A DNA stretch of 20,000 bases from an uncultured virus (IMG/VR IMGVR_UViG_3300011470_000007) (IMGVR_UViG_3300011470_000007), one strand, 5' to 3'; positions 2,007 through 15,728 are shown, counted from the stretch's first letter. The notes: generated by a model not told the origin, from the letters alone. Numbers and translations: made by a program.

Positions 2007-3050
2007 ATGCTAAGAACCCCCATCATCCGCCTAACCGCCGATAACGAGCCACTCGACGACGCCATCATGTCACGTTTGATGGATGTATCTGTTACCGATA
2101 ACAAGTCAGGCGATGCCGATGAGCTGTCTCTCACACTTGATGACCACGACGGCAAACTTGCCATGCCAAAGCGTGGCGTCAAATTGCAATGTTGGATGGG
2201 TTATATCGATGCCGGTGTCCATGACATGGGGATATATACTGTCGATAGCGTTGAATGGGGCGGCACACCCGACACCATCACTGTAAAAGCCAAATCAGCC
2301 GATATGAAAGGCAGTCTTAAGTCTGGACGCACCCAAAGCTATCATGATAAAAAATTGGGCGAAATTGCCAAAGAAGTCGCCACTCGTCATGAGCTGGAAC
2401 TTGCTATGACTGACTACTTGATGAACATTGAAGTCGGGCACATCGATCAGACTGATGAGTCCGACCTGCACTTACTGACTCGCCTTTGTTGGCAGTTTGG
2501 GGCGGTCGTCAACGTCAAACACGGTAAGTTACTTATCTTTCAGCCTTACGAGAACAAAACTGTCTCTGGGCAACCGCTTACCCTGACTGTACTAAAACGT
2601 GACAAGGGCGACCAGTTCCGTTTCAGTATTGAAGACCGACAAGGTGACGTTGATAACGTACAAGCCACTTACCATGACGCCAAGCAAGCCAAGAAAGTAA
2701 CGGTCAACACCGACAAGGACGGGCAAAAAGCCAAAAGATTAAAGGGCAATTTTAAGGATGAAAAGACTGCTACCGCCGCCGCCAATGCTGAGAAAAAACG
2801 CATCGAGGGTGAACAAGGCAAATTTAGCATTAACTGTGCGTTTGGTTATCCAGCAATTAGTACTGAGTCGCCCATTGAACTTCAGGGGTTCAAGGTTGAA
2901 ATTGATAGTTTGAAATGGACAGTGGACAAAGCCACGCATAGCTATAGCAAATCGCAGGGATTGACCACGCAGCTTGACTTGACCGCACCGATAAATGGAG
3001 AGTTTGGCGCCAAACCTGTTGATAAAAAAGATAGTAAAGCCGCTATTTAA
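2007..3050 (+). CDS. P2 GpD-family (late control D / baseplate hub) protein
   Basis: DNKSGDADELSLTLDD, HIDQTDESDLHLLTRL motifs; follows gpU; SD AAGGTG upstream. Confidence 0.92.
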   Translation: MLRTPIIRLTADNEPLDDAIMSRLMDVSVTDNKSGDADELSLTLDDHDGKLAMPKRGVKLQCWMGYIDAGVHDMGIYTVDSVEWGGTPDTITVKAKSADMKGSLKSGRTQSYHDKKLGEIAKEVATRHELELAMTDYLMNIEVGHIDQTDESDLHLLTRLCWQFGAVVNVKHGKLLIFQPYENKTVSGQPLTLTVLKRDKGDQFRFSIEDRQGDVDNVQATYHDAKQAKKVTVNTDKDGQKAKRLKGNFKDEKTATAAANAEKKRIEGEQGKFSINCAFGYPAISTESPIELQGFKVEIDSLKWTVDKATHSYSKSQGLTTQLDLTAPINGEFGAKPVDKKDSKAAI

Positions 3051-3065
3051 CGAGTTTTTGTTAGC

Positions 3066-3082
3066 TATAATTATGCTAAAAT
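3066..3082 (+). promoter_or_regulatory. Putative sigma70 promoter (TATAAT 3066-3071; extended -10 TGcTAAAAT 3074-3082)
   Basis: The extended -10 would place the start at ~3088-3089, the first base of the structured RNA that follows. Confidence 0.5.
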
Positions 3083-3087
3083 AGTTA

Positions 3088-3173
3088 TGCTTGGGTGTGT
3101 CGAGATAAGCCAACTTCCCAGATTGGACGAATAAGACTGCCGTCTCATCGTGTACGGATTTCAGCCCCAAGCA
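3088..3173 (+). ncRNA. Putative C4/CI-like tRNA-shaped antisense RNA (RNA-A)
   Basis: Closing stem TGCTTGGG 3088-3095/CCCAAGCA 3166-3173. Arm GTC 3099-3101/GAC 3135-3137 encloses CCAA 3110-3113/TTGG 3123-3126. Arm CCGT 3140-3143/ACGG 3154-3157 with loop CTCATCGTGT. Unpaired ATTTCAG 3158-3164. Same layout as 7926-8004. Confidence 0.65.
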
Positions 3174-3249
3174 CTTCATCAAGCGATAATATGCACACTA
3201 ACTTAGTCGTAACCTGCCAATCTAACACCACTCACATTTCAATACCACT

Positions 3250-4308
3250 ATGACCCCAGCCTCTCAAAAATTTAAAAATGCCTTCCTTATATTTTTCGGT
3301 TGGTTCTTTGGTATTACCTTCATGTTTACCGCTATTGGTGGTATGGTTAACGGTAATATTATACCTGCACTCATTATTTTTCTAGGTTCGTCATTGTTTA
3401 TTCCGAGTATCCGTCAATGGGTTATCAAAAAATTAAACCATAAAGTTACAAGTAAACCATTAGTGATTGGCGGAGTAATTTCCACGGTTGTAGCGTTCGC
3501 TATGCTATCACCCCAAGAGCCTACCACAAACAGCCCTCACACTACTAATGTTAGCCAAACAGTACCACAGGCAGCAACTCAAGCTCTAAGTCAACCCAAG
3601 CCTATATCTGTCAAAGCTGAACCCATCTCTTCATCCCCTACTTCCCCACAGCAAGCAACCGCACCCATAGCACTAAACACCCAAATGCAAGGCGATATAA
3701 GCTGTAAGGTGGTGGGAATTTCAGATGGTGACACACTCACTTGTCTCACCAATGACAAATCCCAAATCAAAGTACGTCTCAACCAAATTGACGCTCCAGA
3801 AAAATCACAGGCCTTTGGTACCGCCGCCAAGCAGGCATTATCGGGTTATGTGTTTGGCAAAACAGTTGGCTTAAAAACCAATGGTACCGATAAATATGGA
3901 CGTACCGTCGCTGAAGTGTTTGTCGGCGATAAAAATATCAACAAAGCAATGGTCGCCGATGGTTATGCTTGGGCATATCGTGAATATATGACGGATAACG
4001 ACTATGGTGACCTAGAGACTAGCGCACGCTCAAATACAAAAGGCTTATGGTCAGAACCTGACCCAATCTATCCGAGTGATTTTAGACGGGGCAAACGTGG
4101 CGAACAAACCGCCCCTGTCCAAACGCAAACCATTACCCAACAAGTCGAGCAAAAAGCCGTTGCAGATTCAGGTGGTAGCTGTGGCTCAAAACGATATTGC
4201 AAACAAATGGCAACCTGCGCTGAGGCACGCCATTATTTGAATGATTGTGGGGTTAGTCGACTGGATAGAGATGGTGATGGTGTACCGTGTGAAAGTTTGT
4301 GTCAATAA
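3250..4308 (+). CDS. Membrane-anchored thermonuclease (SNase-like) with C-terminal Excalibur Ca-binding domain
   Basis: About three N-terminal hydrophobic helices, P/S/T/Q linker, SNase motifs DGDTL, RLNQIDAPE, DKYGRTVA, GYAW; C-terminal CKQMATCAEA...LDRDGDGVPCE. Confidence 0.9.
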   Translation: MTPASQKFKNAFLIFFGWFFGITFMFTAIGGMVNGNIIPALIIFLGSSLFIPSIRQWVIKKLNHKVTSKPLVIGGVISTVVAFAMLSPQEPTTNSPHTTNVSQTVPQAATQALSQPKPISVKAEPISSSPTSPQQATAPIALNTQMQGDISCKVVGISDGDTLTCLTNDKSQIKVRLNQIDAPEKSQAFGTAAKQALSGYVFGKTVGLKTNGTDKYGRTVAEVFVGDKNINKAMVADGYAWAYREYMTDNDYGDLETSARSNTKGLWSEPDPIYPSDFRRGKRGEQTAPVQTQTITQQVEQKAVADSGGSCGSKRYCKQMATCAEARHYLNDCGVSRLDRDGDGVPCESLCQ

Positions 4309-4405
4309 ATATTATTATTTTGAATCAAAATTATTGTAGATAAAAACCATAGCCTCTCAACGCTTAGAAATCAGAGTGTTTTAATAAAAAATTTATTTTT
4401 TTTGT

Positions 4406-4455
4406 CTCGATATTCTAACGAAAAAAAGGTAATATAGGCGTTAGAATTGCGAGGT
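4406..4455 (+). promoter_or_regulatory. Inverted repeat overlapping the methyltransferase ribosome-binding site
   Basis: CTCG-at-ATTCTAACG 4406-4420 / CGTTAGAAT-tg-CGAG 4439-4453; SD GAGGT at 4451-4455. Confidence 0.45.
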
Positions 4456-4460
4456 GTAGT

Positions 4461-5486
4461 ATGCAAATTGAAGCCGTTGATCTGTTCTGTGGTGTAGGTG
4501 GTCTGACTGCAGGATTAATAAAGTCTGGAATTACTGTTAAAGCAGGTTACGACATAGAGCCAAGCTGCAAATTTGGCTATGAGCATAATAATAAAGCGAC
4601 TTTCGTTTTAAAGGACATTGCACAAGTTAGTGCAGATGAAATAAATTCTTGGTATTCGAAAGGAGCCATTCGTTTGCTTGCTGGCTGTGCTCCTTGTCAG
4701 CCATTTTCAAGTTATAGTAAAGGACGTGATGCGAAACTAGATAAAAAATATCCACTTCTCTACCATTTTTCAAGATTAATTGAGGAAGTATATCCTGAAT
4801 TAGTTACGATGGAGAATGTACCAGACGTTACTTCTCACCAAGTTTATCATGATTTTGTCTCTAAACTTGAATCTTTAGGATATATCATTGCCGCTCAAAA
4901 AGTTGACTGTGTGAAATACGGCATTCCACAAACTCGCAAACGCCATGTATTACTTGCAACTCGTATTTCAGAAACAATAAGCTTGATTCCGCCCACGCAT
5001 GATAAACCAGTTACAGTCAGAGAGGCTATTAAAGGATTACCTGTGCTATACGCAGGAAAACAAAATAAAAATGATCCATTACATATTTGCTCTGAGCTTA
5101 GCGACCTTAATATGCGTCGCATTAAAGCGTCGAAAGCAGGTGGCACTTGGAAAGATTGGTCATCGGATTTAATCGCAGAGTGCCATAAGAAAGATTCTGG
5201 TAAATCGTTTAGAAGTGTTTATGGTCGTATGGAATGGGATAAACCAGCACCTACTATTACGACTCAATGCTATGGTTTTGGTAATGGTCGATTCGGTCAC
5301 CCTTCGCAGCATAGAGCGATTTCAATGCGTGAGGCGGCAATCTTCCAGACATTTCCAGAAGATTACAAATTTACCGATGGTAAGGTGTTTATTAAAAAAG
5401 TGAGTAGAATGATAGGTAATGCTGTACCTGTTAGGTTGGGAGAAATTGTAGGACTTAGTTTTTTTACTAAACAAAACTATCAATAA
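4461..5486 (+). CDS. DNA (cytosine-5)-methyltransferase
   Basis: Motif I DLFCGVGG, IV GCAPCQPFS, VI MENV, VIII PQTRKRH, IX REAAIFQTFP, X IGNAVP. Confidence 0.96.
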   Translation: MQIEAVDLFCGVGGLTAGLIKSGITVKAGYDIEPSCKFGYEHNNKATFVLKDIAQVSADEINSWYSKGAIRLLAGCAPCQPFSSYSKGRDAKLDKKYPLLYHFSRLIEEVYPELVTMENVPDVTSHQVYHDFVSKLESLGYIIAAQKVDCVKYGIPQTRKRHVLLATRISETISLIPPTHDKPVTVREAIKGLPVLYAGKQNKNDPLHICSELSDLNMRRIKASKAGGTWKDWSSDLIAECHKKDSGKSFRSVYGRMEWDKPAPTITTQCYGFGNGRFGHPSQHRAISMREAAIFQTFPEDYKFTDGKVFIKKVSRMIGNAVPVRLGEIVGLSFFTKQNYQ

Positions 5487-7422
5487 GAGTCTTAATTTTG
5501 TCTGCCTCTTTTTCTTTGACCAAAAAATCAGCATATGCTGATTTTGCTTTTAGAAGCATTTCATCATAAGTTGAGATAGTATATTTGGCTGCCGCTAGCT
5601 TTGCCTCGTTCTCCTTTTGATCGCCTTCAATCCTATCACCTATCAAAAATACAACTTTGATTCTATCTTTACTGGCATGAGGATCTACTGCTTGCAAGCA
5701 TTTAAATAAAGTTTCTTTATATAAATCACCTTGTCTCATCAAATCATATATATCTAACTTTTTTGGCAATTTAGGGCGCTTTAATTCGATAATAATATGG
5801 TCATCTCCAATATTCCTATATCGTAAGTCAAACCGTCCTTTTTGTTGTTCTGGGGTTAGTTTAGCTTTCACTTTTTCGTCAAAAGCTTTATGTATATTCT
5901 GTTCTTTGAGCTCACTCCCTGCTACCCTCTCCCAAGTTGGGTCAATTAGCCATAGATGAGAATAAATGAAATCTCTAATTTTATTTTCGTAATCATTTTG
6001 GTTAATTTTATTTTCAATAATTTTTATTGTTTCCAATCTTGCTCTAACAACATCATGATAAAGTGAAATTTCATAAGAATCATAACTAGAAAGTATTCTT
6101 ATTAGTTCCGACGGTCCAGCATCTATAGCATCTGCAAGTTCAATGTTGCTTTTACTTAATCTTAATCTTTCAAATGCCAATATGGTACTTCTAAATAATT
6201 CTTTTCTATCATTTTCCTTAGGTTCATCAATTTGGAGATTAGATACTGTTTCCAAAAGAGCTTCCGCTTGCTTTTGATGAGGTACAGGTAATTCTTCTAT
6301 CCATTTTTTTAATTGGGGGTATTGTTTAACAACTTCTTCTTTATCAAATTTTTTTCTTTCAATCGACCAAATTTGATACATCTCGTTCATTAATTTCTTA
6401 CCAAACTTTAACAAAGCTTGATATCGTACATCGTCTTCACGAACTCTTTGTCTATCACTAGTAGCAATATCTTCACCATCATTTTCATCTAAGAAATCTG
6501 CTTGGATTACACCAGTAATGTAAGCTTTCATCAGCCTATTTTCAGATATTTTATCTAATATATTTTCTTGAAACACTCGTCCCCTTGAAATAACTGATAT
6601 ACCATTCAAATTACCCATATCATAAGTATTTAAATCCTTAGGTTTCAAAGCAGTTCCTAACCACCCATCAAAAGAGTAAACTTGATTATCATATATAATT
6701 TGATGGTCCGAAAAATTAAAAATTTTTACATCATCAGGAAAATTTATAGAGTCATTATTAGAAAATTTCCAAGCAAATTGCAAATTGGTAAAATCATCCC
6801 TATCAGTTTGAACAATTTTCTCATTATTTATATATACATTAAAATTATCCTTGTCACCGATAACTGAAAATCGTCTTGCAATCCTTTTTTTCATAGCAGA
6901 TATAGATTGTCCTAAACGACTCGTCAGAAGTCTTGATAATATAAATCTGGTACCGCTATTTTGTGTAAACTCTTCAACATTAATCGGCATTGGATGATAT
7001 GTTGTACCATTCGTTATATGATTTTTAAGTTGAGTTACATCAATACTTAAAGAATGGGCATCTTGGTTTTCTTTTTTAGATGTAATTTCTACATATTCAG
7101 CTATTGAAAATAAAGCAAGTTTACCGATTCCTTTTCTTCCCATTACAGGTCTACCCTTTGGACTAAATGGGTGATTTAATCTTCTTTTGTATGCAACCTT
7201 TAAAAATTTATTATTAAGATCATTTACTGACATACCATGACCATTGTCTGTAATAGTTATAATTGATTTATCATCACTAATATTAATATGAACTTCAGTT
7301 GCATCTGCATCCCATGCATTCGCAATAATCTCTGTTAAAGCAGCTGCTGTATTGCTATAAAGATTTAGACCAAGATGTTCTACTGCCGCTAAATCAACAG
7401 AAAAAGTATATTGCTCAGACAT
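5467..7422 (-). CDS. GHKL (MORC/MutL-type) ATPase fused to C-terminal PD-(D/E)XK nuclease; probable restriction partner of the methyltransferase (HgiDII-like architecture)
   Basis: Bergerat motifs EIIANAWDA, DNGHGM, GRKGIGK, GT; C-terminal GRFDL...IIIELKRP...QGDLY. SD GAGG upstream; 3' end overlaps the MTase by 20 bp. Confidence 0.85.
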   Translation of the reverse strand: MSEQYTFSVDLAAVEHLGLNLYSNTAAALTEIIANAWDADATEVHINISDDKSIITITDNGHGMSVNDLNNKFLKVAYKRRLNHPFSPKGRPVMGRKGIGKLALFSIAEYVEITSKKENQDAHSLSIDVTQLKNHITNGTTYHPMPINVEEFTQNSGTRFILSRLLTSRLGQSISAMKKRIARRFSVIGDKDNFNVYINNEKIVQTDRDDFTNLQFAWKFSNNDSINFPDDVKIFNFSDHQIIYDNQVYSFDGWLGTALKPKDLNTYDMGNLNGISVISRGRVFQENILDKISENRLMKAYITGVIQADFLDENDGEDIATSDRQRVREDDVRYQALLKFGKKLMNEMYQIWSIERKKFDKEEVVKQYPQLKKWIEELPVPHQKQAEALLETVSNLQIDEPKENDRKELFRSTILAFERLRLSKSNIELADAIDAGPSELIRILSSYDSYEISLYHDVVRARLETIKIIENKINQNDYENKIRDFIYSHLWLIDPTWERVAGSELKEQNIHKAFDEKVKAKLTPEQQKGRFDLRYRNIGDDHIIIELKRPKLPKKLDIYDLMRQGDLYKETLFKCLQAVDPHASKDRIKVVFLIGDRIEGDQKENEAKLAAAKYTISTYDEMLLKAKSAYADFLVKEKEADKIKTLIDSFV

Positions 7423-7513
7423 AAAACCCTCAATATTTTTAAACTAAATTATTAGATAAGTATCATTTTGGACATCAAAAAGCCAATCAAGACTGATTGG
7501 CTTATGCAAAATT

Positions 7514-7714
7514 TTATTTATTTTCAAACATTGGAATAACTGATCTATTGGAAGAAACTAAAGTGTCAAAGTTTTGTTTAATATCTATTACACTACCATC
7601 TAAAAAATATATTCTACATGTAGAGCTATTTTCTTTATCTATACACAAAATATTATCTAAATTAATAAAAGTTTTTATACTATTAGTTCTCTCTACTTTA
7701 ATAAACTGCGCCAT
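7514..7714 (-). CDS. Small hypothetical protein (66 aa, beta-rich, loosely FlbD/LytTR-like pattern)
   Basis: ATG with AAGGA SD; FINLDNILCI...CRIYFLDG pattern; co-oriented upstream of the GHKL gene. Confidence 0.6.
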   Translation of the reverse strand: MAQFIKVERTNSIKTFINLDNILCIDKENSSTCRIYFLDGSVIDIKQNFDTLVSSNRSVIPMFENK

Positions 7715-7767
7715 TTCTATATTCCTTATAAATGTCTGTTAATTTGTCAACAATATAACAAATTAAC

Positions 7768-7796
7768 TTGCAACCGACAAACAAAAGATTTATGAT
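7768..7796 (+). promoter_or_regulatory. sigma70 promoter for the C4-like RNA operon
   Basis: TTGCAA 7768-7773, 17-bp spacer, TATGAT 7791-7796; start ~7803. Confidence 0.65.
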
Positions 7797-7803
7797 TTAC
7801 TTA

Positions 7804-7853
7804 CTACTAAACAATCAGCGGTTCAAAAATCACCCCGTTAGCGTGCTTTTTTT
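7804..7853 (+). promoter_or_regulatory. Upstream antisense target and U-tract attenuator-like leader (P1 a1b1 / P4 seqA-like)
   Basis: ACTAAACAATCAG 7806-7818 is repeated exactly at 8024-8036. CAATCAG is complementary to CTGATTG 7979-7985. T7 run at 7847-7853. Confidence 0.55.
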
Positions 7854-7925
7854 GTGCCTAAAATTTACCAAGCTATTGTTATCATTATGGCATTGGTGGA
7901 TAATACGCACGTCAAAAACGTCTTA

Positions 7926-8004
7926 TGACGGGTCGAGAGAACCGAATAAAATACCCTATGGGAAATAAGTTCCGCCGCCTGATTGCGGTAGTTGAAGCCC
8001 GTCG
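7926..8004 (+). ncRNA. Putative C4/CI-like antisense RNA (RNA-B)
   Basis: Closing stem GACGGG 7927-7932/CCCGTC 7998-8003. Arm GAAC 7939-7942/GTTC 7969-7972 encloses CCC-TAT-GGG. Arm GCCGC 7974-7978/GCGGT 7985-7989 with loop CTGATT. CCTGATTG is complementary to CAATCAGG 8030-8037 over the SD of the next gene. Confidence 0.75.
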
Positions 8005-8045
8005 CCTACTAAGCGACAAATTAACTAAACAATCAGGAGGTCATC

Positions 8046-8567
8046 ATGACCACAATCGCTTTGGCAACCAAGCCAAATCTATTAAGCCAAATCAAACGCC
8101 GTATCTATGGCATTCCCCATCGCCGCCACGCAGCCAAGCGCATAGAGGCAGCACAACATAACATCGTCAATCACCTGACTAAACAAACCAACAGGCTACA
8201 CACCCCCTTACCTATCCAAGTCAGCACACTATGGCGCATCATTAATAATGCCATCATCGCAGGGCAATTAGATTTAACTACACTTACCGATCGACCAAGC
8301 CAACTTAAACAAGGCTTACTTTATCTATCATTTGAGCGCGTTAGTGGATTATTAGACGACGTATCGTTACCCATAGCTGATCTAACGAGCCTCGAATTTC
8401 GCACCATCATGACCTTATTGGGTGGCGTCGAAGCAGAGATTATCAGTGAGCAATCAATCGATACCACGGGTCAAGGTGAGCCACGCCTTGCCTACCGTTT
8501 ACCCATCGCCACGCTAATTAATCTCAATCAACCAATAGTTAAAGCCCAATTAGCGGAGGTGGCATAA
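8046..8567 (+). CDS. Hypothetical protein, first gene after the C4-like RNA (icd/kil/ant position)
   Basis: SD AGGAGG 8035-8040, 173 aa, stop overlaps next ATG. Confidence 0.8.
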   Translation: MTTIALATKPNLLSQIKRRIYGIPHRRHAAKRIEAAQHNIVNHLTKQTNRLHTPLPIQVSTLWRIINNAIIAGQLDLTTLTDRPSQLKQGLLYLSFERVSGLLDDVSLPIADLTSLEFRTIMTLLGGVEAEIISEQSIDTTGQGEPRLAYRLPIATLINLNQPIVKAQLAEVA

Positions 8568-8752
8568 TGTCAGAGGAAATCTTAGCCCTAATCAATCGTT
8601 GCAAAGCCTATCTGGCAGTTGACCGCTACGGACAAGATAAAGTGCAGACAATGAGAGGATACTTATTGGCACTCCAGCATCTAGGATTGATTGACCCGTG
8701 GCTGGCCTATTGCATCATCACCAGTTATGAAGAGGAGCTTGCCAATGATTAA
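8567..8752 (+). CDS. Hypothetical phage protein (61 aa)
   Basis: SD GGAGGT; TAATG coupling to the upstream gene. Confidence 0.7.
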   Translation: MSEEILALINRCKAYLAVDRYGQDKVQTMRGYLLALQHLGLIDPWLAYCIITSYEEELAND

Positions 8753-9095
8753 GCTCCCTATTGCTCGCACCCATATCGCAGGAAAACGTCGCTTTGTTTT
8801 TTATCTCAGTGACATCGTTAAGCATATCAACGACTTAACAAACGATAACAATCCACATGACAAATCATGTCGTGAGATCAGCGTTGAACGATTGCAGGAT
8901 ATGGTTAAGACGGTTAAATTAAGAGGACAACAAGATTATATTTACGTGCCAAATCGCGATGACACTGCCTTAAATTTATCAGCGACGCAAGCACTATTGA
9001 TTATTTATGGTAATAACACGGCAAGCTATGCAGAGCATGAAGCGGCTTGGACGATGTTTCACCAAATCACTGACTTTATACAAGGAGTAAAATAA
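8745..9095 (+). CDS. Hypothetical phage protein (weak Bro-N-like FVFYLSDIVKHI segment)
   Basis: ATG 8745 with SD GAGGAG preferred over 8691; stop coupled to next ATG. Confidence 0.7.
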   Translation: MIKLPIARTHIAGKRRFVFYLSDIVKHINDLTNDNNPHDKSCREISVERLQDMVKTVKLRGQQDYIYVPNRDDTALNLSATQALLIIYGNNTASYAEHEAAWTMFHQITDFIQGVK

Positions 9096-9343
9096 TGACC
9101 CCCAATCAAGCATCTATCAGTAGCGAACTATTGCGTATCTCAAGCTATGCGGGGGTCATGTCACGATTGGCGAATAATGGCAACAGCACCAAAGTAGACA
9201 CGGCGCAATTACAAACCATCTTTTCTGATATCGCCAAAGTAACAGGTTTAGCATATGCAGAAATTCAATCTATCATTAACGATGATTGCCCATTCGTCGA
9301 TAATTATGATAAGCCACCAATGTCATCTCAAACAGGCAACTAA
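9095..9343 (+). CDS. Hypothetical phage protein (82 aa)
   Basis: SD AAGGAG, TAATG coupling, followed by terminator. Confidence 0.7.
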   Translation: MTPNQASISSELLRISSYAGVMSRLANNGNSTKVDTAQLQTIFSDIAKVTGLAYAEIQSIINDDCPFVDNYDKPPMSSQTGN

Positions 9344-9357
9344 ATAGTTAGTTCCAG

Positions 9358-9388
9358 AAAAACCCTTGTCAACTGACAGGGGTTTTTT
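9358..9388. terminator. Bidirectional intrinsic terminator
   Basis: AAAAACCCTTGTC-aact-GACAGGGGTTTTTT between convergent genes. Confidence 0.88.
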
Positions 9389-9711
9389 TATAACAGTGAC
9401 TTCGCCATTTTCATAAGTCTCTCACGGTCATCAACGCCAAGCCCACGATAAATATCAAGCCAAGCTTGCTCATCAGGTGGCAACACAACTGCCCCACCTT
9501 CGACCCGTTGACCCGTCACCACATAACCTACGTCATAGCCCAAACCTCCTAACTTGAGCAAAAATTCAAGGTCGGGTGAACGCTTACCTGTTTCATAGTT
9601 GGAAAGTGTGGCAATAGCTACATCAATCGCTTTCAACACATCCGTTTGTTTTAAGCCAAGTCGCAATCTTTCGGAGCGTAGCCGCTCGCTTATAATTTCG
9701 TTGTTTAACAT
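9388..9711 (-). CDS. XRE-family HTH prophage repressor
   Basis: ISERLRSERLRLGLKQ...LSNYETGKRSPD...GYDVGYVVTG. ATG 9711 has SD AAGGTG, preferred over GTG 9723. No C-terminal peptidase domain. Confidence 0.9.
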   Translation of the reverse strand: MLNNEIISERLRSERLRLGLKQTDVLKAIDVAIATLSNYETGKRSPDLEFLLKLGGLGYDVGYVVTGQRVEGGAVVLPPDEQAWLDIYRGLGVDDRERLMKMAKSLL

Positions 9712-9800
9712 TTTTATAAACACCTTATTGACTTAAACATTTTTATAAGTCAAAATAAACCTTGTTAATTTGTTAAAAATCTAGCAAAAACATTTTAACA
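9703..9800. promoter_or_regulatory. Lysis/lysogeny switch: early promoter and candidate operators
   Basis: TTGACT 9728-9733, 17 bp, CAAAAT 9751-9756. Direct repeat AACATTTTTATAA at 9707-9719 and 9736-9748. Inverted repeat TTGACTTA 9728-9735/TAAGTCAA 9746-9753. Confidence 0.65.
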
Positions 9801-9838
9801 CCTTTTCTAACCAACCCTTTAAAAAAAGGACAATCACG

Positions 9839-10066
9839 ATGACAACCAAAATGTTAGCGGTGCGTACCCCTGAAAGCATGCACACCTACCTCAAAGTCAC
9901 AGCCTACAAAAAAGGCTCAAGCATTCAAGAATTGGTCAATGAGATATTAGCCGACCATCAAGCAAAAGACCCAGAATACCAAGGCTCTCTTAATGACTTG
10001 GTCACTGACTCCCTTACCGCATTGGCATCAATCACCCAAGATGAGGAGGTGTCTCGTGGCGTATAG
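9839..10066 (+). CDS. Ribbon-helix-helix-like DNA-binding protein (Cro/Cox position)
   Basis: MLAVRTPESMHTYLKVTAYKKGSSIQELVNEIL fits the beta-alpha-alpha RHH pattern; first gene divergent from the repressor; SD AAGGA. Confidence 0.7.
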   Translation: MTTKMLAVRTPESMHTYLKVTAYKKGSSIQELVNEILADHQAKDPEYQGSLNDLVTDSLTALASITQDEEVSRGV

Positions 10067-10326: not shown

Positions 10327-10548
10327 ATGTCAACGGCATATATCAGATGTCCGCATTGCGGCAGCAAAATGACTACCGCACGGCACCGTCAGATGAATGA
10401 GCTATTAAAAGAACTGACAGCCACTTGTCGCAATGCAGATTGCTTATTTAGCGCCAGCGTCTATGTCGAGATAGCAAGACAAATCCAACCAAGCCTTGCC
10501 CCAAAACCTGAAATAACGGGGCAGCTTATAAAAGGACAACCACGATGA
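10327..10548 (+). CDS. ogr: Ogr/Delta-family zinc-finger late transcription activator
   Basis: CPHC...C-RNAD-C...EIARQIQPS; SD GAGGT. Confidence 0.88.
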   Translation: MSTAYIRCPHCGSKMTTARHRQMNELLKELTATCRNADCLFSASVYVEIARQIQPSLAPKPEITGQLIKGQPR

Positions 10549-13205
10549 GTATTAATGACCAAGTCGTCTCGCGTCTGAAATCCGAGTACGGCTTTAAACA
10601 AGTCGGCGAATGGCTACGTGAAGGCGTATGCCCAGACTGTAGCAAAAAGTCACTTTTCACCCATGCCCATAGCCCCCGCGTCGTCAAATGCGGGCGGCTC
10701 AATAAATGTGGTTTGGAAATCCATGTTAAGGAACTATTTGACGATCTATTCAAAGACTGGTCAAAAACCTACGTCCGCACTGAAACCAACCCCAACGCTA
10801 CTGCTGACGCTTATCTAACAGAAGGACGTGGCTTAGATATCAGCAAAATCAAAGGTAGTTATACCCAAGAATCTTTTTTTGACAATAAAATCAACCAAGG
10901 CACTGCTACCGTTCGTTTTGCCTTACCCAACGGTGGCTGGTGGGAGCGTTTTATCGACCAAGCTGAGCGTTTTGACAAAAAAGCCAACTTCAAATATGGC
11001 TACAAAATTAATGGCTACTGGTGGTGGCACCCTGCAAACGCTTTGATGCCAAAAGAAATATGGATTTGTGAGGGTATCTTTGATGCTATCGCATTAGCAG
11101 AGCATGGGTTTGCCACTGTCAGCCCACTAAGCTGCGTTAATTTCCCAGAAAATTCATTATACGAATTAAAGGCAAAATACGATGAGAAACGCCAAACATT
11201 ACCAACTCTTGTATGGGCTTTTGACAATGATGCCGCAGGGCAACGCTACACCAAGCAATTTATCGAACAAGCCAAAAAAATCGGATTTGAGAGTGCCGCT
11301 GCCCAACCGCCGTATGACAAACACAAAAAGCTTGACTGGAACGACCTGCACGAACTCGGGCAACTAACAGACGAGCATCTCAAAAAATACCGCTACTTTG
11401 GTGACTTGCTCACCGCAAAATCACCGACGGACGCAGCGGTCATCCGCTATATGCACAGGAAAATTAACCAATTTTATTTTGAGCATGACAACCGCACCTA
11501 CTGGTTTGAACTTGATACTAATAAATTGTCAAAACTAATGGATGTGCCTGACCATGAGGTTGAAGACATCATGGGTAATATGCCAGACGAAGACGAACAG
11601 ATGGCGAAATTTGTCCGTCAGACATCCAACACGCATGAGATTTTAAATGCCAAGATTGAAGCCCTGTATTTTCAGCGCAATGACGTCACAGACGAATCCT
11701 GGTACTTCACCCGTGTCACTACTAACAAAGGCGACAAGCAAACCACCATCACCGGTGACCAGTTATCTAGTCCCAGTAAATTAAAACCGCGTTTGTTATC
11801 GGTTTTTGCGGGTGTACTTTGGACAGGGTCAGCTATGCAATTAGATATCATCGCCAAGCACCAAATGGAGGGGCTAAAAGAAGTCAAAACCACGGACTTT
11901 ATTGGTTACGCCAAAGAGCACCAAGCCTATATCTTTAATGATGTGGCAATATCCAAAGGCAAAGTCGTCGCCAAAAATAGCCAAGACTATTACAAAATCG
12001 GTCGCCTTGAAATCAAATCATTGGCCAATGACCCTGTATTGCACATCAACACCAAAGACAAGCCTGATTTTAGTTGGTGGCATAACTTTCATCGCGTTCG
12101 CGGTGCATACGGTACGATTGTCATGGCTTGGTGGCTTGGCACTTACTTTGCCGAGCAAATCCGCGGACTTGATCGCTCATATCCATTCTTTGAATTGGTA
12201 GGACAAGCAGGCGCAGGTAAATCACGTCTGCTTGAATTTATGTGGAAACTCTCAGGTCGAGAAGACTACGAAGGGTTTGACCCATCCAAATCTACAAGCG
12301 TGGCGGTGTACCGCAACTTTGCCCAAGTCGCAAACCTACCTATCGCCCTAATCGAAGGCGACCGTAACGACGAAGACGGCAAAGCCAAATCATTCAAAAC
12401 CTTTGAGTGGGACTCACTCAAAGACGCATTTAATGGTCGCTCCATCCGCTCTAAAGGCGTCAAAAATAACGGAAATGACACTTACAGTCCGCCATTTCGT
12501 GCCGCCGTGATGATATCCCAGAATGAAGAAATCCAAGCCAGTGAGGCGATGCTAACCCGTATTATTCACGTCAAACTCACCCGCGACGGTCAGACGCTAG
12601 AGACCAAGCACATCGTCGACAGCCTTGATCGATTGCCCATCGAGCTAACCAATCGCTTTATGGCGCATGCACTGAAAAATGAACAAGCGATTTTAGAAAC
12701 TTACCAACAGCGAATCCGTATGTATGAGGCACGCTATCACGAGTTTGGTGTTACCCATACTCGTATTGCCCTCAATCATGCACAAATAGCCGCCATGATT
12801 GACTGTTTGCAAACACATGTACTGTCTGGATTGATGACGGACCAACAAGCCGAGCAAGCTAAGCAAGCATTATTTGAAATGGCGCAAACCCGAGTTCAAC
12901 GCTTACAAGCCGACCACCCAGACGTTGATAAATTCTGGAGCGTATTTGAATTTTTAATGTCAACAGGCAAGTTTGTTTGTCATACCAATATAAACGACCC
13001 AAGTCGCAAAATCGGTATCAATCTCAACCATTTTTATAAGGTGGCAAGGGAAAATTACCAAGACTTACCAGACATCACCCAAATGAAACGCCTGCTAAAA
13101 AATAGTAGCCGTTATAAATTCGTTGATAGCAATATCAGCGTTATGTCAGTAATTGATGGCTTTAAAACCATGAAGTGCTGGATTTTTACTAAACCTACTG
13201 AATAG
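10545..13205 (+). CDS. Replication protein: Zn finger + TOPRIM primase + P-loop helicase (P4 alpha-like organisation)
   Basis: CPDC...CGRLNKC; TOPRIM ICEGIFDA, AFDNDAAG, DWNDL; Walker A GQAGAGKS; ATGA overlap with ogr. Confidence 0.9.
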   Translation: MSINDQVVSRLKSEYGFKQVGEWLREGVCPDCSKKSLFTHAHSPRVVKCGRLNKCGLEIHVKELFDDLFKDWSKTYVRTETNPNATADAYLTEGRGLDISKIKGSYTQESFFDNKINQGTATVRFALPNGGWWERFIDQAERFDKKANFKYGYKINGYWWWHPANALMPKEIWICEGIFDAIALAEHGFATVSPLSCVNFPENSLYELKAKYDEKRQTLPTLVWAFDNDAAGQRYTKQFIEQAKKIGFESAAAQPPYDKHKKLDWNDLHELGQLTDEHLKKYRYFGDLLTAKSPTDAAVIRYMHRKINQFYFEHDNRTYWFELDTNKLSKLMDVPDHEVEDIMGNMPDEDEQMAKFVRQTSNTHEILNAKIEALYFQRNDVTDESWYFTRVTTNKGDKQTTITGDQLSSPSKLKPRLLSVFAGVLWTGSAMQLDIIAKHQMEGLKEVKTTDFIGYAKEHQAYIFNDVAISKGKVVAKNSQDYYKIGRLEIKSLANDPVLHINTKDKPDFSWWHNFHRVRGAYGTIVMAWWLGTYFAEQIRGLDRSYPFFELVGQAGAGKSRLLEFMWKLSGREDYEGFDPSKSTSVAVYRNFAQVANLPIALIEGDRNDEDGKAKSFKTFEWDSLKDAFNGRSIRSKGVKNNGNDTYSPPFRAAVMISQNEEIQASEAMLTRIIHVKLTRDGQTLETKHIVDSLDRLPIELTNRFMAHALKNEQAILETYQQRIRMYEARYHEFGVTHTRIALNHAQIAAMIDCLQTHVLSGLMTDQQAEQAKQALFEMAQTRVQRLQADHPDVDKFWSVFEFLMSTGKFVCHTNINDPSRKIGINLNHFYKVARENYQDLPDITQMKRLLKNSSRYKFVDSNISVMSVIDGFKTMKCWIFTKPTE

Positions 13206-13215
13206 GAAAAATACG

Positions 13216-13425
13216 ATGACCGACATTATCGACCAAGCCAATGACGTCGCCCAACAATCCATCGAGCGAGCAATTGCTAACGCCCCAAAATTCAATCGCC
13301 CATCGTTGACAGAATGTAAAGACTGTGGCGAACCAATCCCACTAAAACGGCAACAACTTGGCGGCGTTACTCGCTGTATTGACTGCCAGGAATACCACGA
13401 CAAGAAGCACCGACATGGCAACTAA
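13216..13425 (+). CDS. TraR/DksA C4-type zinc-finger protein
   Basis: MTDIIDQA; CKDCGEPIPLKRQ...RCIDCQ. Confidence 0.92.
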   Translation: MTDIIDQANDVAQQSIERAIANAPKFNRPSLTECKDCGEPIPLKRQQLGGVTRCIDCQEYHDKKHRHGN

Positions 13426-14273: not shown

Positions 14274-15440
14274 ATGCAAAAAATATCATCAGGCATTGAA
14301 CCGCTCAAAACCGCCATCAGAATTTGGTGGAAAATCGACGGTGAGCGTCACCGCGAGACTATACATAACAGCCCACCCACCGATGCCAACCTTGCCACCG
14401 CCAAAGCCACTGCAGAAATGATAGCCCAGCAACTACGCATGGGTATTTTTGACCGTGATACCGTATTCCCCGACTCATCAAAAAGAGCTGACCGCTATTT
14501 TGGATACTATATCCACCAATGGCGAAAAGTTGAGACCAACAAAGTCGCCAAAATATCATTTGACACCTACGACAGCAAAGTCAAAACCCACATCGAACCA
14601 TATTGGGGCATGAAACCTATCGCTAAGATTGGCGTAGAAGATATAGAGGAATGGGTTTATAACGTACTATTACAAAAACTATCGACCAAAACAGTCAAAG
14701 AAATTCTCATGCTATGGCGCAAAATTTACAGCTACTGGGCAAGACATCAAAAAACCATCAACGACCCAACCAAGTACATATCACTAGGACAAACTGACCC
14801 AGATGATATCGACCCATTTGACCGCGACGAAATAACAAGGATATTAAACCACCCAACAACCCCTACCCTGCATAACCTTTATACAGTCATGCTGTGGAGC
14901 GGATTATCATTCCACGAACTGATAAGTTTAGCGGTCGAAGATTTAGACCTAGAAAAAGGCTGCTTATTCGTCAATCGCAGCTTTGTTCGTGAACAATACC
15001 GCGTAACAAAAAACCGCCGCCGCAAACGCCAAGTCGACTTACTGCCCCAAGTCATAACAGCGCTAAAAAATCAAATCGAGCAGGTGAGCAACAACCAAAA
15101 AAACAGCATCCAAATCACCGACCGAGATAATAAAAAAATAAAATCTCAAACCCTCACGTGGCTTTGGTATGACGATACATCAAAAACCCACTTTACCTAC
15201 AGCCAATTATCTCGGCGCTGGAAGTCGCACTTGGAATCCTGTGGCATACGCTACCGACCACTCAATAACGGCAGGCACACCTATGCAAGCCAAGTGCTAT
15301 CAACAGGTGCAGTGACAGCAGAATGGCTTGCCAATCAGCTTGGACATACCAACACTGACATGATTCACCGTCACTACGGCAAATTTATTCCCAAGGACGC
15401 AAACCACATCATAAAAAACCTAGCCAACGCCCTGCAATAA
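14274..15440 (+). CDS. int: Tyrosine recombinase / phage integrase with N-terminal arm-binding domain
   Basis: IRIWWKIDGERHRE arm domain; WSGLSFHEL, TK, GRHTYAS, QLGH, HY; next to tRNA 3' end. Confidence 0.93.
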   Translation: MQKISSGIEPLKTAIRIWWKIDGERHRETIHNSPPTDANLATAKATAEMIAQQLRMGIFDRDTVFPDSSKRADRYFGYYIHQWRKVETNKVAKISFDTYDSKVKTHIEPYWGMKPIAKIGVEDIEEWVYNVLLQKLSTKTVKEILMLWRKIYSYWARHQKTINDPTKYISLGQTDPDDIDPFDRDEITRILNHPTTPTLHNLYTVMLWSGLSFHELISLAVEDLDLEKGCLFVNRSFVREQYRVTKNRRRKRQVDLLPQVITALKNQIEQVSNNQKNSIQITDRDNKKIKSQTLTWLWYDDTSKTHFTYSQLSRRWKSHLESCGIRYRPLNNGRHTYASQVLSTGAVTAEWLANQLGHTNTDMIHRHYGKFIPKDANHIIKNLANALQ

Positions 15441-15651: not shown

Positions 15652-15728
15652 TGGTGGCGATGAAGAGACTTGAACTCTTGACCTCACGATTATGAGTCGT
15701 GCGCTCTAACCAGCTGAGCTACATCGCC
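15652..15728 (-). tRNA. tRNA with CAT anticodon, probably elongator tRNA-Met (Ile2 not excluded); likely attachment site
   Basis: Reverse complement GGCGATGTAGCTCAGCTGGTTAGAGCGCACGACTCATAATCGTGAGGTCAAGAGTTCAAGTCTCTTCATCGCCACCA, 77 nt; full cloverleaf, encoded CCA, G1-C72 pair (not initiator). Confidence 0.97.

Follow-up and report, generated by a model that had tools for sequence, protein, structure and literature searches.

Two RNAs with a common fold flank a cargo block in a P2-like Moraxella prophage and may be c4-like antisense regulators with different targets

The window analysed here, a stretch of 20,000 nucleotides (nt) of DNA from an uncultured virus (IMG/VR IMGVR_UViG_3300011470_000007), is the right end of a P2-like Moraxella prophage together with its host flank. 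It carries tail genes, a small RNA (RNA1), a block of cargo genes, a second small RNA (RNA2) with an operon behind it, the repressor and early genes, the integrase gene and a tRNA-Met gene. This report concerns the two RNAs, which an earlier note on this DNA described as one scaffold with different guide loops; both are probably c4-like antisense RNAs. Their features, in window positions, are as follows.

3066-3071 (+): TATAAT, a second box upstream of RNA1
3077-3082 (+): TAAAAT, candidate -10 box, 6 nt before the 5' end of RNA1
3089-3172 (+): RNA1, putative c4-like/sRNA-Xcc1-type RNA with the 'type B' internal loop, without flanking target sites
3089-3095/3166-3172: RNA1 stem P1, GCTTGGG/CCCAAGC
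3099-3101/3135-3137: RNA1 stem P2, GTC/GAC
3110-3113/3123-3126: RNA1 stem P3, CCAA/TTGG
3140-3143/3154-3157: RNA1 stem P4, CCGT/ACGG
3144-3153 (+): RNA1 P4 loop, CTCATCGTGT, the proposed guide b'
3158-3164 (+): RNA1 3' junction, ATTTCAG, a possible second guide a'
7927-8003 (+): RNA2, putative c4-like/sRNA-Xcc1-type RNA with the 'type A' internal loop
7927-7932/7998-8003: RNA2 stem P1, GACGGG/CCCGTC
7939-7942/7969-7972: RNA2 stem P2, GAAC/GTTC
7954-7956/7960-7962: RNA2 stem P3, CCC/GGG
7974-7978/7985-7989: RNA2 stem P4, GCCGC/GCGGT
7979-7984 (+): RNA2 P4 loop, CTGATT
8004-8007 (+): RNA2 tail, GCCT

In the predicted fold, a closing stem (P1), a hairpin (P4) and an arm (P2-P3) with an A-rich internal loop meet in a three-way junction; the proposed guides are the loop of P4 (b') and the 3' junction that comes after it (a'). 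The motifs AATAAG (3130-3135 and 7964-7969), GCCG (3139-3142 and 7974-7977) and AGCCC (3163-3167 and 7996-8000) lie exactly where the earlier note placed them. Its further claim, that stem sequences differ while pairing is kept, holds for P1 to P4 in both RNAs, and the two stretches have the element order and the covariance-model fold in common. The A-rich internal loop is conserved across the family in two types, AAUACAAYACC...GRAAUAA (RNA2-like) and GARAUAAG...ACGAAUAA (RNA1-like).

Because RNAalifold on a plain MAFFT alignment gave P1 only (the inner helices were misaligned), the first covariance model was seeded from three co-linear type-B RNAs of other genomes and then realigned. With this three-homolog model, RNA1 scored 31.8 bits (E=2e-7) and RNA2 16.6 bits (E=0.0057). 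These were the best two of 11 window matches up to E=10, and the third reached 10.4 bits (E=0.38). The earlier note had held that the idea of a common scaffold would fall if a model built from homologs of one RNA missed the other; a model from one type detected both. RNA1 scored only 6.7 bits on the minus strand as compared with 31.8 bits on the plus strand, and G-U pairs are common; therefore, the RNA strand is fixed. For covariation, 30 matches (25 distinct) were aligned by fitting to the model, which favours the structure. In the 25 distinct homologs, 98.2% of cells pair and compensatory changes occur in 20/20 pairs; none of 500 shuffles equalled the observed value, and slid controls pair at 40-46%. 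A second model, whose alignment included the above-cut-off members L001 (73.6 bits) and L002 (69.7 bits) and one RNA1 ortholog, gave 52 bits for RNA2 and 50.5 bits for RNA1.

We compared the RNAs with Rfam. At the gathering threshold, tRNA-Met was the sole match in the window. When the threshold was relaxed, RNA2 (7927-8011) matched the full model of RF02221, sRNA-Xcc1, with 48.9 bits (E=7.5e-8). RNA2 aligns full-length to the RF02221 consensus fold, and the three-homolog model aligns both RNAs to it. No riboswitch family of Rfam matched either RNA, and a tRNA or tmRNA identity was rejected. Among the relatives of the nearest genome, RF02221 was found in 15/61 at E<=0.01 and in 10/61 above the cut-off, as compared with 0/14 control genomes; its copies are often clustered within a few kilobases (kb). 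The second model found the family in 32/151 Moraxellaceae genomes (5/21 genera), and most members carry an RCCC tail. Within 10 kb of gpD in the distant relatives L054 and L055 (Motiliproteus and Paraburkholderia P2-like prophages, 38% identity in gpD), no family RNA was detected at E<=1. A metagenome scan with a 17-mer gave 22 stretches, 5 of them with an RNA, and wider scans by gpD and by primase returned the same few phage contigs. Tandem arrays of two or three Xcc1- or C4-type RNAs were also observed (G010:C3 846486-848703, G007:C2 41671-42876 and G032:C1 475261-475624, in our labels for genomes and contigs). The array RNAs mostly precede different antirepressor genes, and one genome (G113) holds up to 11 copies.

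In most family loci, the RNA has on either side short stretches complementary to its P4 loop and to its 3' junction. When the loops were read from the model alignment, sites of at least 7 nt at the RNA's own locus were present for b2 in 16/25 rows (4.2% in cross-locus controls), for b1 in 17/25 (7.0%), for a2 in 11/25 (8.5%) and for a1 in 10/25 (4.1%). The rows without sites include the RNA1 ortholog, two RNAs with no downstream open reading frame (ORF) and two weak or misaligned matches. The b2 site directly precedes GAGG, which is followed by ATG. The first downstream ORF is of antirepressor type in 13/23 loci (P22_AR_N 3, Bro-N 4, KilA-N 5, one of which is also AntA, and Rha 1); two of the remaining ORFs have other domains and eight have none. 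Members of the C4 family (RF01695) lie within the same tandem arrays as Xcc1-type RNAs in G010, and one C4 member has the GCCGT..ACGG hairpin, the ACCC tail and flanking sites in common with them but not the A-rich internal loop. According to the accessible text of PMC5320573, P1 c4 has three stems and a'/b' loops, b' occludes the ribosome site, and the RNA is processed by RNase P. sRNA-Xcc1 is described, in what is accessible of PMC2996969, as an 88-nt RNA on a Northern blot in Xanthomonas. Xylella annotations interleave C4, isrK and Xcc1 matches (PMC12189769, accessible part), and the Xcc1 copies of Xanthomonas integrons stand upstream of symE (bioRxiv 10.1101/2025.06.18.660453, likewise). 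In the accessible parts of the literature that names sRNA-Xcc1 with C4 or isrK, no link of Xcc1 to the c4 mechanism was found.

The region around RNA2 contains the following elements.

7768-7796 (+): distal promoter-like site TTGCAA-17-TATGAT, a consensus match, whose transcript would start at a1b1
7803-7807 (+): a1, ACTAC, complementary to the RNA2 junction
7812-7821 (+): b1, CAATCAG+CGG, complementary to the RNA2 loop
7831-7864 (+): terminator-like element CACCCCGTTAGCGTG + T7 + GTGCCTAAAAT, after a1b1
7876-7904 (+): proximal promoter-like site TTGTTA-17-GATAAT, a consensus match about 20 nt before RNA2
8023-8027 (+): a2, AACTA, complementary to the RNA2 junction
8030-8037 (+): b2, CAATCAGG, overlapping the Shine-Dalgarno sequence AGGAGG (8035-8040) before ATG 8046
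8046-8567, 8567-8752, 8691-9095 and 9095-9343 (+): ORFs of the operon presumably controlled by RNA2

As in a c4 region, sites complementary to the guides lie upstream (a1b1, 7803-7821) and downstream (a2b2, 8023-8037) of RNA2, and b2 overlaps the ribosome-binding site of the first downstream gene, both in the window and in most family loci. This arrangement fits that of the P1 immI region, and the gene presumed to be controlled is usually an antirepressor gene in relatives. The main target of RNA2 would be the gene immediately downstream on the same transcript. The leader of the 8046-9343 operon would give rise to RNA2. By pairing of its loop (CCUGAUUG) with CAAUCAGG and of its junction (UAGUU) with AACUA, 20-34 nt downstream, RNA2 would cover the Shine-Dalgarno sequence of ORF 8046 and block translation. 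The long transcript would also carry the sites at its 5' end, and this second copy may permit self-control. Processing of a longer precursor by RNase P is hinted at only indirectly, by the promoter-like sites that precede RNA2 by 20 and 125 nt and by the RCCC tail of most members. Six promoter-like sites were found in the RNA2 region as compared with 3.6 expected, hence these sites are weak.

No Pfam, PHROG or PADLOC match was obtained for the operon ORFs (8046-9343). ORF 8046 encodes 173 amino acids and has 15 unnamed homologs; its structure model (predicted local distance difference test, pLDDT, 72) gave weak winged-helix-like matches only (E>=0.1) and no fold match at E<=0.001. Its best Atlas match was to RegA-type translational repressors (0.89), which is below the useful level and serves as a lead only. 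The same first gene (MTTIALAT...) is preceded in related prophages by RNAs with four versions of the loop, each matched by its own b1 and b2.

Loop CCTGATTG: matching sites CAATCAG(G)
Loop CTAGTCT: matching sites AAGACTAG
Loop CTGTTTG: matching sites CAAACAG
Loop CTGTACT: matching sites AGTACAG

RNA2 might also act mainly by terminating transcription early, through pairing with a1b1 on the nascent leader as the CI RNA of P4 and the CA RNA of N15 do on theirs, instead of blocking the ribosome at 8046; the two mechanisms are compatible. A hairpin-like element followed by seven T occurs after a1b1 in most family loci (7831-7853 in the window), where the whole CACCCCGTTAGCGTG/T7/GTGCCTAAAAT-type element is near-identical, and this would suit a terminator. 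However, b2 overlaps the Shine-Dalgarno sequence in nearly all loci, and the terminator scan did not call the 7831-7864 element, which may be a weak terminator or a binding site. We regard termination as the main mode of action as possible and rather doubtful.

The proposed targets of RNA1 lie in the early region, with the following features.

9388-9723 (-): helix-turn-helix (HTH) repressor gene
9835-9842 (+): CACGATGA, spanning the start of the Arc/cox-like gene, with 8 nt complementary to the RNA1 loop
9839 (+): ATG of the Arc/cox-like gene, the first early gene
between the cox-like gene and the primase gene: Ogr gene
10508-10514 (+): CTGAAAT, an a-like site in the primase start region
10541-10549 (+): CACGATGAG, a b site of 9 nt that includes the primase ATG 10545
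10545-13205 (+): primase gene
10575-10584 (+): CTGAAATCCG, inside the primase gene
13198-13202, CTGAA, then AGGAAAAA, then 13213-13219, ACGATGA (+): start region of the DksA-like gene, including ATG 13216
13216 (+): ATG of the DksA-like gene, after the primase gene

RNA1 itself has no flanking sites: the best flank matches are 4-7 nt long and lie outside the loop. Among 15 start regions of the window, the RNA1 loop matches three (9839, 10545 and 13216) and the RNA2 loop matches 8046 alone, whereas 23 other family loops match 0/15; shuffled RNA1 loops reach three start-region matches in 0.4% of 2000 trials. This bears out the proposal that each loop has its own complementary start-region target in this prophage. 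Because the two loops match different start regions, the result also fits two separate circuits, as had been suggested. In eight related loci, CACGATGA occurs 17 times on the plus strand outside the RNA itself, and 17/17 occurrences fall on the start codons of cox-like, primase or post-primase genes; the tail genes of five loci, about 10 kb, contain no non-self occurrence of the RNA1 8-mer. The a-SD-b layout of the DksA-like start region, SD being the Shine-Dalgarno sequence, also stands before different post-primase genes in G001, L044, L050 and L051. It was also observed that the start regions 9815-9842, 10520-10549 and 13198-13219 share the order A-rich / GGA(C/A)AA / (N)CACG-ATG-A. Other phages of the group have this start region in front of unrelated post-primase genes, so that it looks like a portable module junction. 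A further observation concerns CTGAAATCCG, a CTGAATCCG-type site 31 nt into the primase gene, all 10 nt of which are complementary to the 3' side of P4 plus the junction of RNA1. The M. atlantae lineage keeps only CTGAAA at this site, and the complementarity may reflect coding constraint.

Three lineages were available for RNA1. In the M. atlantae lineage (gpD 73% identical), P1, P2 and P4 have changed compensatorily and P3 also differs, whereas the loop CTCATCGTGT is unchanged. The sole other loop allele found is TTCATCGTG, which makes two alleles in the sample; RNA1 orthologs in general keep the fold with swapped P3 hairpins. In the third lineage (G007:C9, gpD 64% identical), an RNA1-like RNA (16.9 bits, E=0.0048) has the same P1 and junction, and its loop is TTTGTTTTCCG, also given as UUUGUUUUCCG. 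The junction ATTTCAG is thus kept in each of the three lineages. On its plus strand, the third-lineage locus has two copies of GGAAAACA, at the Shine-Dalgarno sequences of the cox-like gene and of the primase gene. Complementarity of the loop to the cox-like and primase starts is 8-9 nt within a lineage and 4-6 nt across the two loop classes (window or M. atlantae lineage against third lineage); with shuffled loops, 8, 2 and 35 of 5000 trials did as well as the real loop on both start regions. Complementarity has thus been kept through change in both partners, as is expected of a multi-target sRNA, with two loop classes available. The idea of a retargetable scaffold gains from both RNAs, since four RNA2 loop versions have matched sites and RNA1 loops match the starts of their own lineage.

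RNA1 probably has its own -10 box, as judged from its spacing: TATAAT or TAAAAT stands 6-7 nt before the RNA1-like RNA in four different upstream contexts. Terminators follow the RNA1-like RNA in G001 (where RNA1 is also present), L043 and G007. In our proposal, RNA1 would be an orphan copy located where the tail operon ends. Its loop (UCAUCGUG) would pair in trans with the CACGAUGA starts of the cox-like, primase and post-primase genes; early lytic functions, whether of the resident phage or of an incoming relative, would thereby be damped.

The best explanation of these results is that RNA1 and RNA2 belong to the sRNA-Xcc1 branch of a c4-like superfamily and act as antisense RNAs, RNA2 in cis on 8046 and RNA1 in trans on early-gene starts. 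We give this joint reading, which is drawn from sequence comparison, a probability of about 0.62. Several observations weigh against it. Single-sequence folding is not significant (z = -1.29 for RNA1 and -1.34 for RNA2), and therefore the case for the fold rests on homologs; in RNA1, the minimum-free-energy structure departs from the scaffold. The Rfam score of RNA2 is about 4 bits below the RF02221 gathering score of 53, RNA1 has no Rfam match at E<=10 (2950-3350), and the C4 model RF01695 has none at E<=10 in 2950-3350 or 7750-8150. ORF 8046 has no antirepressor domain recognisable by Pfam, PHROG or fold search. The promoter scan found no full -35/-10 site upstream of RNA1, and no terminator follows RNA1 in the window. 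As for the targets, the 17 start-codon matches are in loci that are kin, so that they are not 17 independent events, and only two loop classes were sampled for RNA1. Duplex energy does not discriminate: the cox site (-11.5 kcal/mol) is at the 56th percentile of background, primase at the 4th, dksA at the 14th and RNA2 on 8046 at the 8th. The a-site of RNA1 is weak; CTGAAAT occurs three times on each strand beyond RNA1 itself, and CTGAAA(T) sites precede several start regions without overall enrichment. The a..b pattern had 47 matches in G001 as compared with 65 for the reversed control; the search in G001 and G002 was no better than the reversed control and yielded one lead (G001:C273). Matches of 8-11 nt were common by chance in a k-mer scan of the window.

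RNA1 might be a real regulator whose target is elsewhere, in host mRNAs or in the antirepressor operon of a competing phage, with the early-start match incidental. The lack of cis sites and the duplex energies, which do not favour the phage start regions, would agree with this, and such roles are proposed for Acinetobacter C4-like sRNAs in the accessible text of PMC5320573. On the other hand, the loop and the start-region motif change together in the third lineage, and the 17/17 placement on early-gene start codons, with none in the tail genes, also speaks against it. We consider a target elsewhere unlikely. It is more improbable still that RNA1 is the decaying remnant of an RNA-antirepressor module, kept only as the left flank for cargo recombination. 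Homology does break exactly at the 3' end of RNA1, the RCCC tail has been lost in the window lineage, and Rfam does not detect RNA1. However, the stems have changed compensatorily while the RNA1 loop stayed fixed, and the -10 box at fixed distance, with terminators in several loci, suggests a maintained transcription unit. The suggestion that the two elements serve the genes behind them in cis, as leaders or riboswitch-like sensors, for which their 5' untranslated positions in the window and the missing terminator after RNA1 might speak, is scarcely credible and was rejected: the loops co-vary with target sites, the gene after RNA1 varies by locus, a terminator directly follows RNA1 in several loci, and no riboswitch family matches.

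The antisense RNAs proposed here stand at the two ends of a swappable block. The remaining genes of the window are as follows.

1-1566: tape measure gene of the prophage
between the tape measure gene and gpD: gpU gene of the prophage
2007-3050: gpD gene of the prophage
3173-7739: swappable cargo block between RNA1 and RNA2, with homology breaking at both edges
3250-4308 (+): secreted SNase/Excalibur nuclease (Pfam/PADLOC)
4461-5486 (+): C5 DNA methyltransferase (Pfam/PADLOC)
5467-7422 (-): restriction enzyme of 651 amino acids with a HATPase_c_3 domain (PADLOC REase_II E=3e-106, Pfam)
14274-15440: integrase gene
15652-15728 (-): tRNA-Met gene
beyond tRNA-Met: host genes phoH and ybeY

In this prophage, the cargo is a type II restriction-modification pair and a nuclease; other genes occupy the site in related prophages. 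An RNA1-like RNA was found in 10/10 sources (the window and nine related viral loci), always after gpD, and an RNA2-like RNA in 8/10 of them, 1.1-4.7 kb beyond the RNA1-like RNA, with varying genes between. Metagenome contigs of several runs part from the window at 3171/3172 and 7737/7740, with additional joins within RNA2, and homology to G002 ends at window position 3175. Because spacing and gene content vary and homology breaks at these places, the site is a cargo hotspot, here with a restriction-modification system, and its conserved flanks are the two RNAs with their control regions; the earlier note's statement that they bracket an accessory block was accurate. The tRNA-Met gene adjoins the integrase gene and is likely to be the attachment site of the prophage.

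If our reading is correct, P2-like Moraxella phages would use RNA-based immunity modules of the P1 kind, and the widely annotated sRNA-Xcc1 family would gain a testable mode of action. In the accessible literature, sRNA-Xcc1 matches are reported in Xanthomonas, Xylella, aphid-symbiont phages and elsewhere, and its virulence roles are vague. The results also suggest a second immunity layer that acts on the translation start sites of early genes. An extension of this idea, which we hold only tentatively and would not back at even odds, is that RNA1 is a c4-scaffold start-site silencer that gives cross-phage, repressor-independent immunity and that the whole sRNA-Xcc1 family is c4-like. One RNA1 loop, directed at the motif common to the cox-like, primase and post-primase starts, would then make the lysogen immune independently of the repressor, and this immunity would extend across related Moraxella P2-like phages with different repressors. 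Likewise, members of the sRNA-Xcc1 family, including the integron copies before Xanthomonas symE, would act on the downstream gene and would not be virulence sRNAs. The natural pairs of guide and target on one scaffold (four for RNA2 and two for RNA1) are handy for studying or borrowing orthogonal RNA regulators.

Among known phage systems, the CI RNA of P4 and the CA RNA of N15 are short processed RNAs with complementary sites upstream and downstream in their own leader, and they work by ending transcription prematurely. P4 is associated with P2-type phages, and its CI RNA controls the P4 primase operon. The Group 1 C4-like sRNAs of Acinetobacter baumannii come from the same bacterial family and, as given in the accessible text of PMC5320573, likewise have many c4-type copies with variable guide loops, some of them without an obvious cis target; unlike the RNAs described here, they match the C4 model, and no proposal of a link to phage early-gene starts was found in that text. 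sRNA-Xcc1 (RF02221) was first found in an integron cassette of Xanthomonas campestris and is described in the accessible literature as a trans-acting, virulence-linked sRNA. It has the consensus structure and motifs in common with our RNAs, and RNA2 spans the whole model; however, RNA2 falls 4 bits short of the cut-off, and the model misses RNA1. The nearest functional parallel is the c4 RNA of P1 and P7 (immI; RF01695), which, according to the accessible text of PMC5320573, has a closing stem with hairpins and two single-stranded guides complementary to upstream and downstream sites. There, the b site occludes the ribosome-binding site of the first downstream gene, an antirepressor operon is controlled, and small loop changes give new specificities. 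In contrast to that system, neither of our RNAs matches RF01695 at E<=10, their first arm has a conserved A-rich internal loop that is absent from the C4 member compared, the carrier phage is P2-like, and RNA1 lacks flanking sites and has several distant candidate targets. The guiding principle is the known c4 principle and is not new; what appears to be new is the assignment of the sRNA-Xcc1 branch to the c4 mechanism, together with an orphan copy aimed at early-gene starts.

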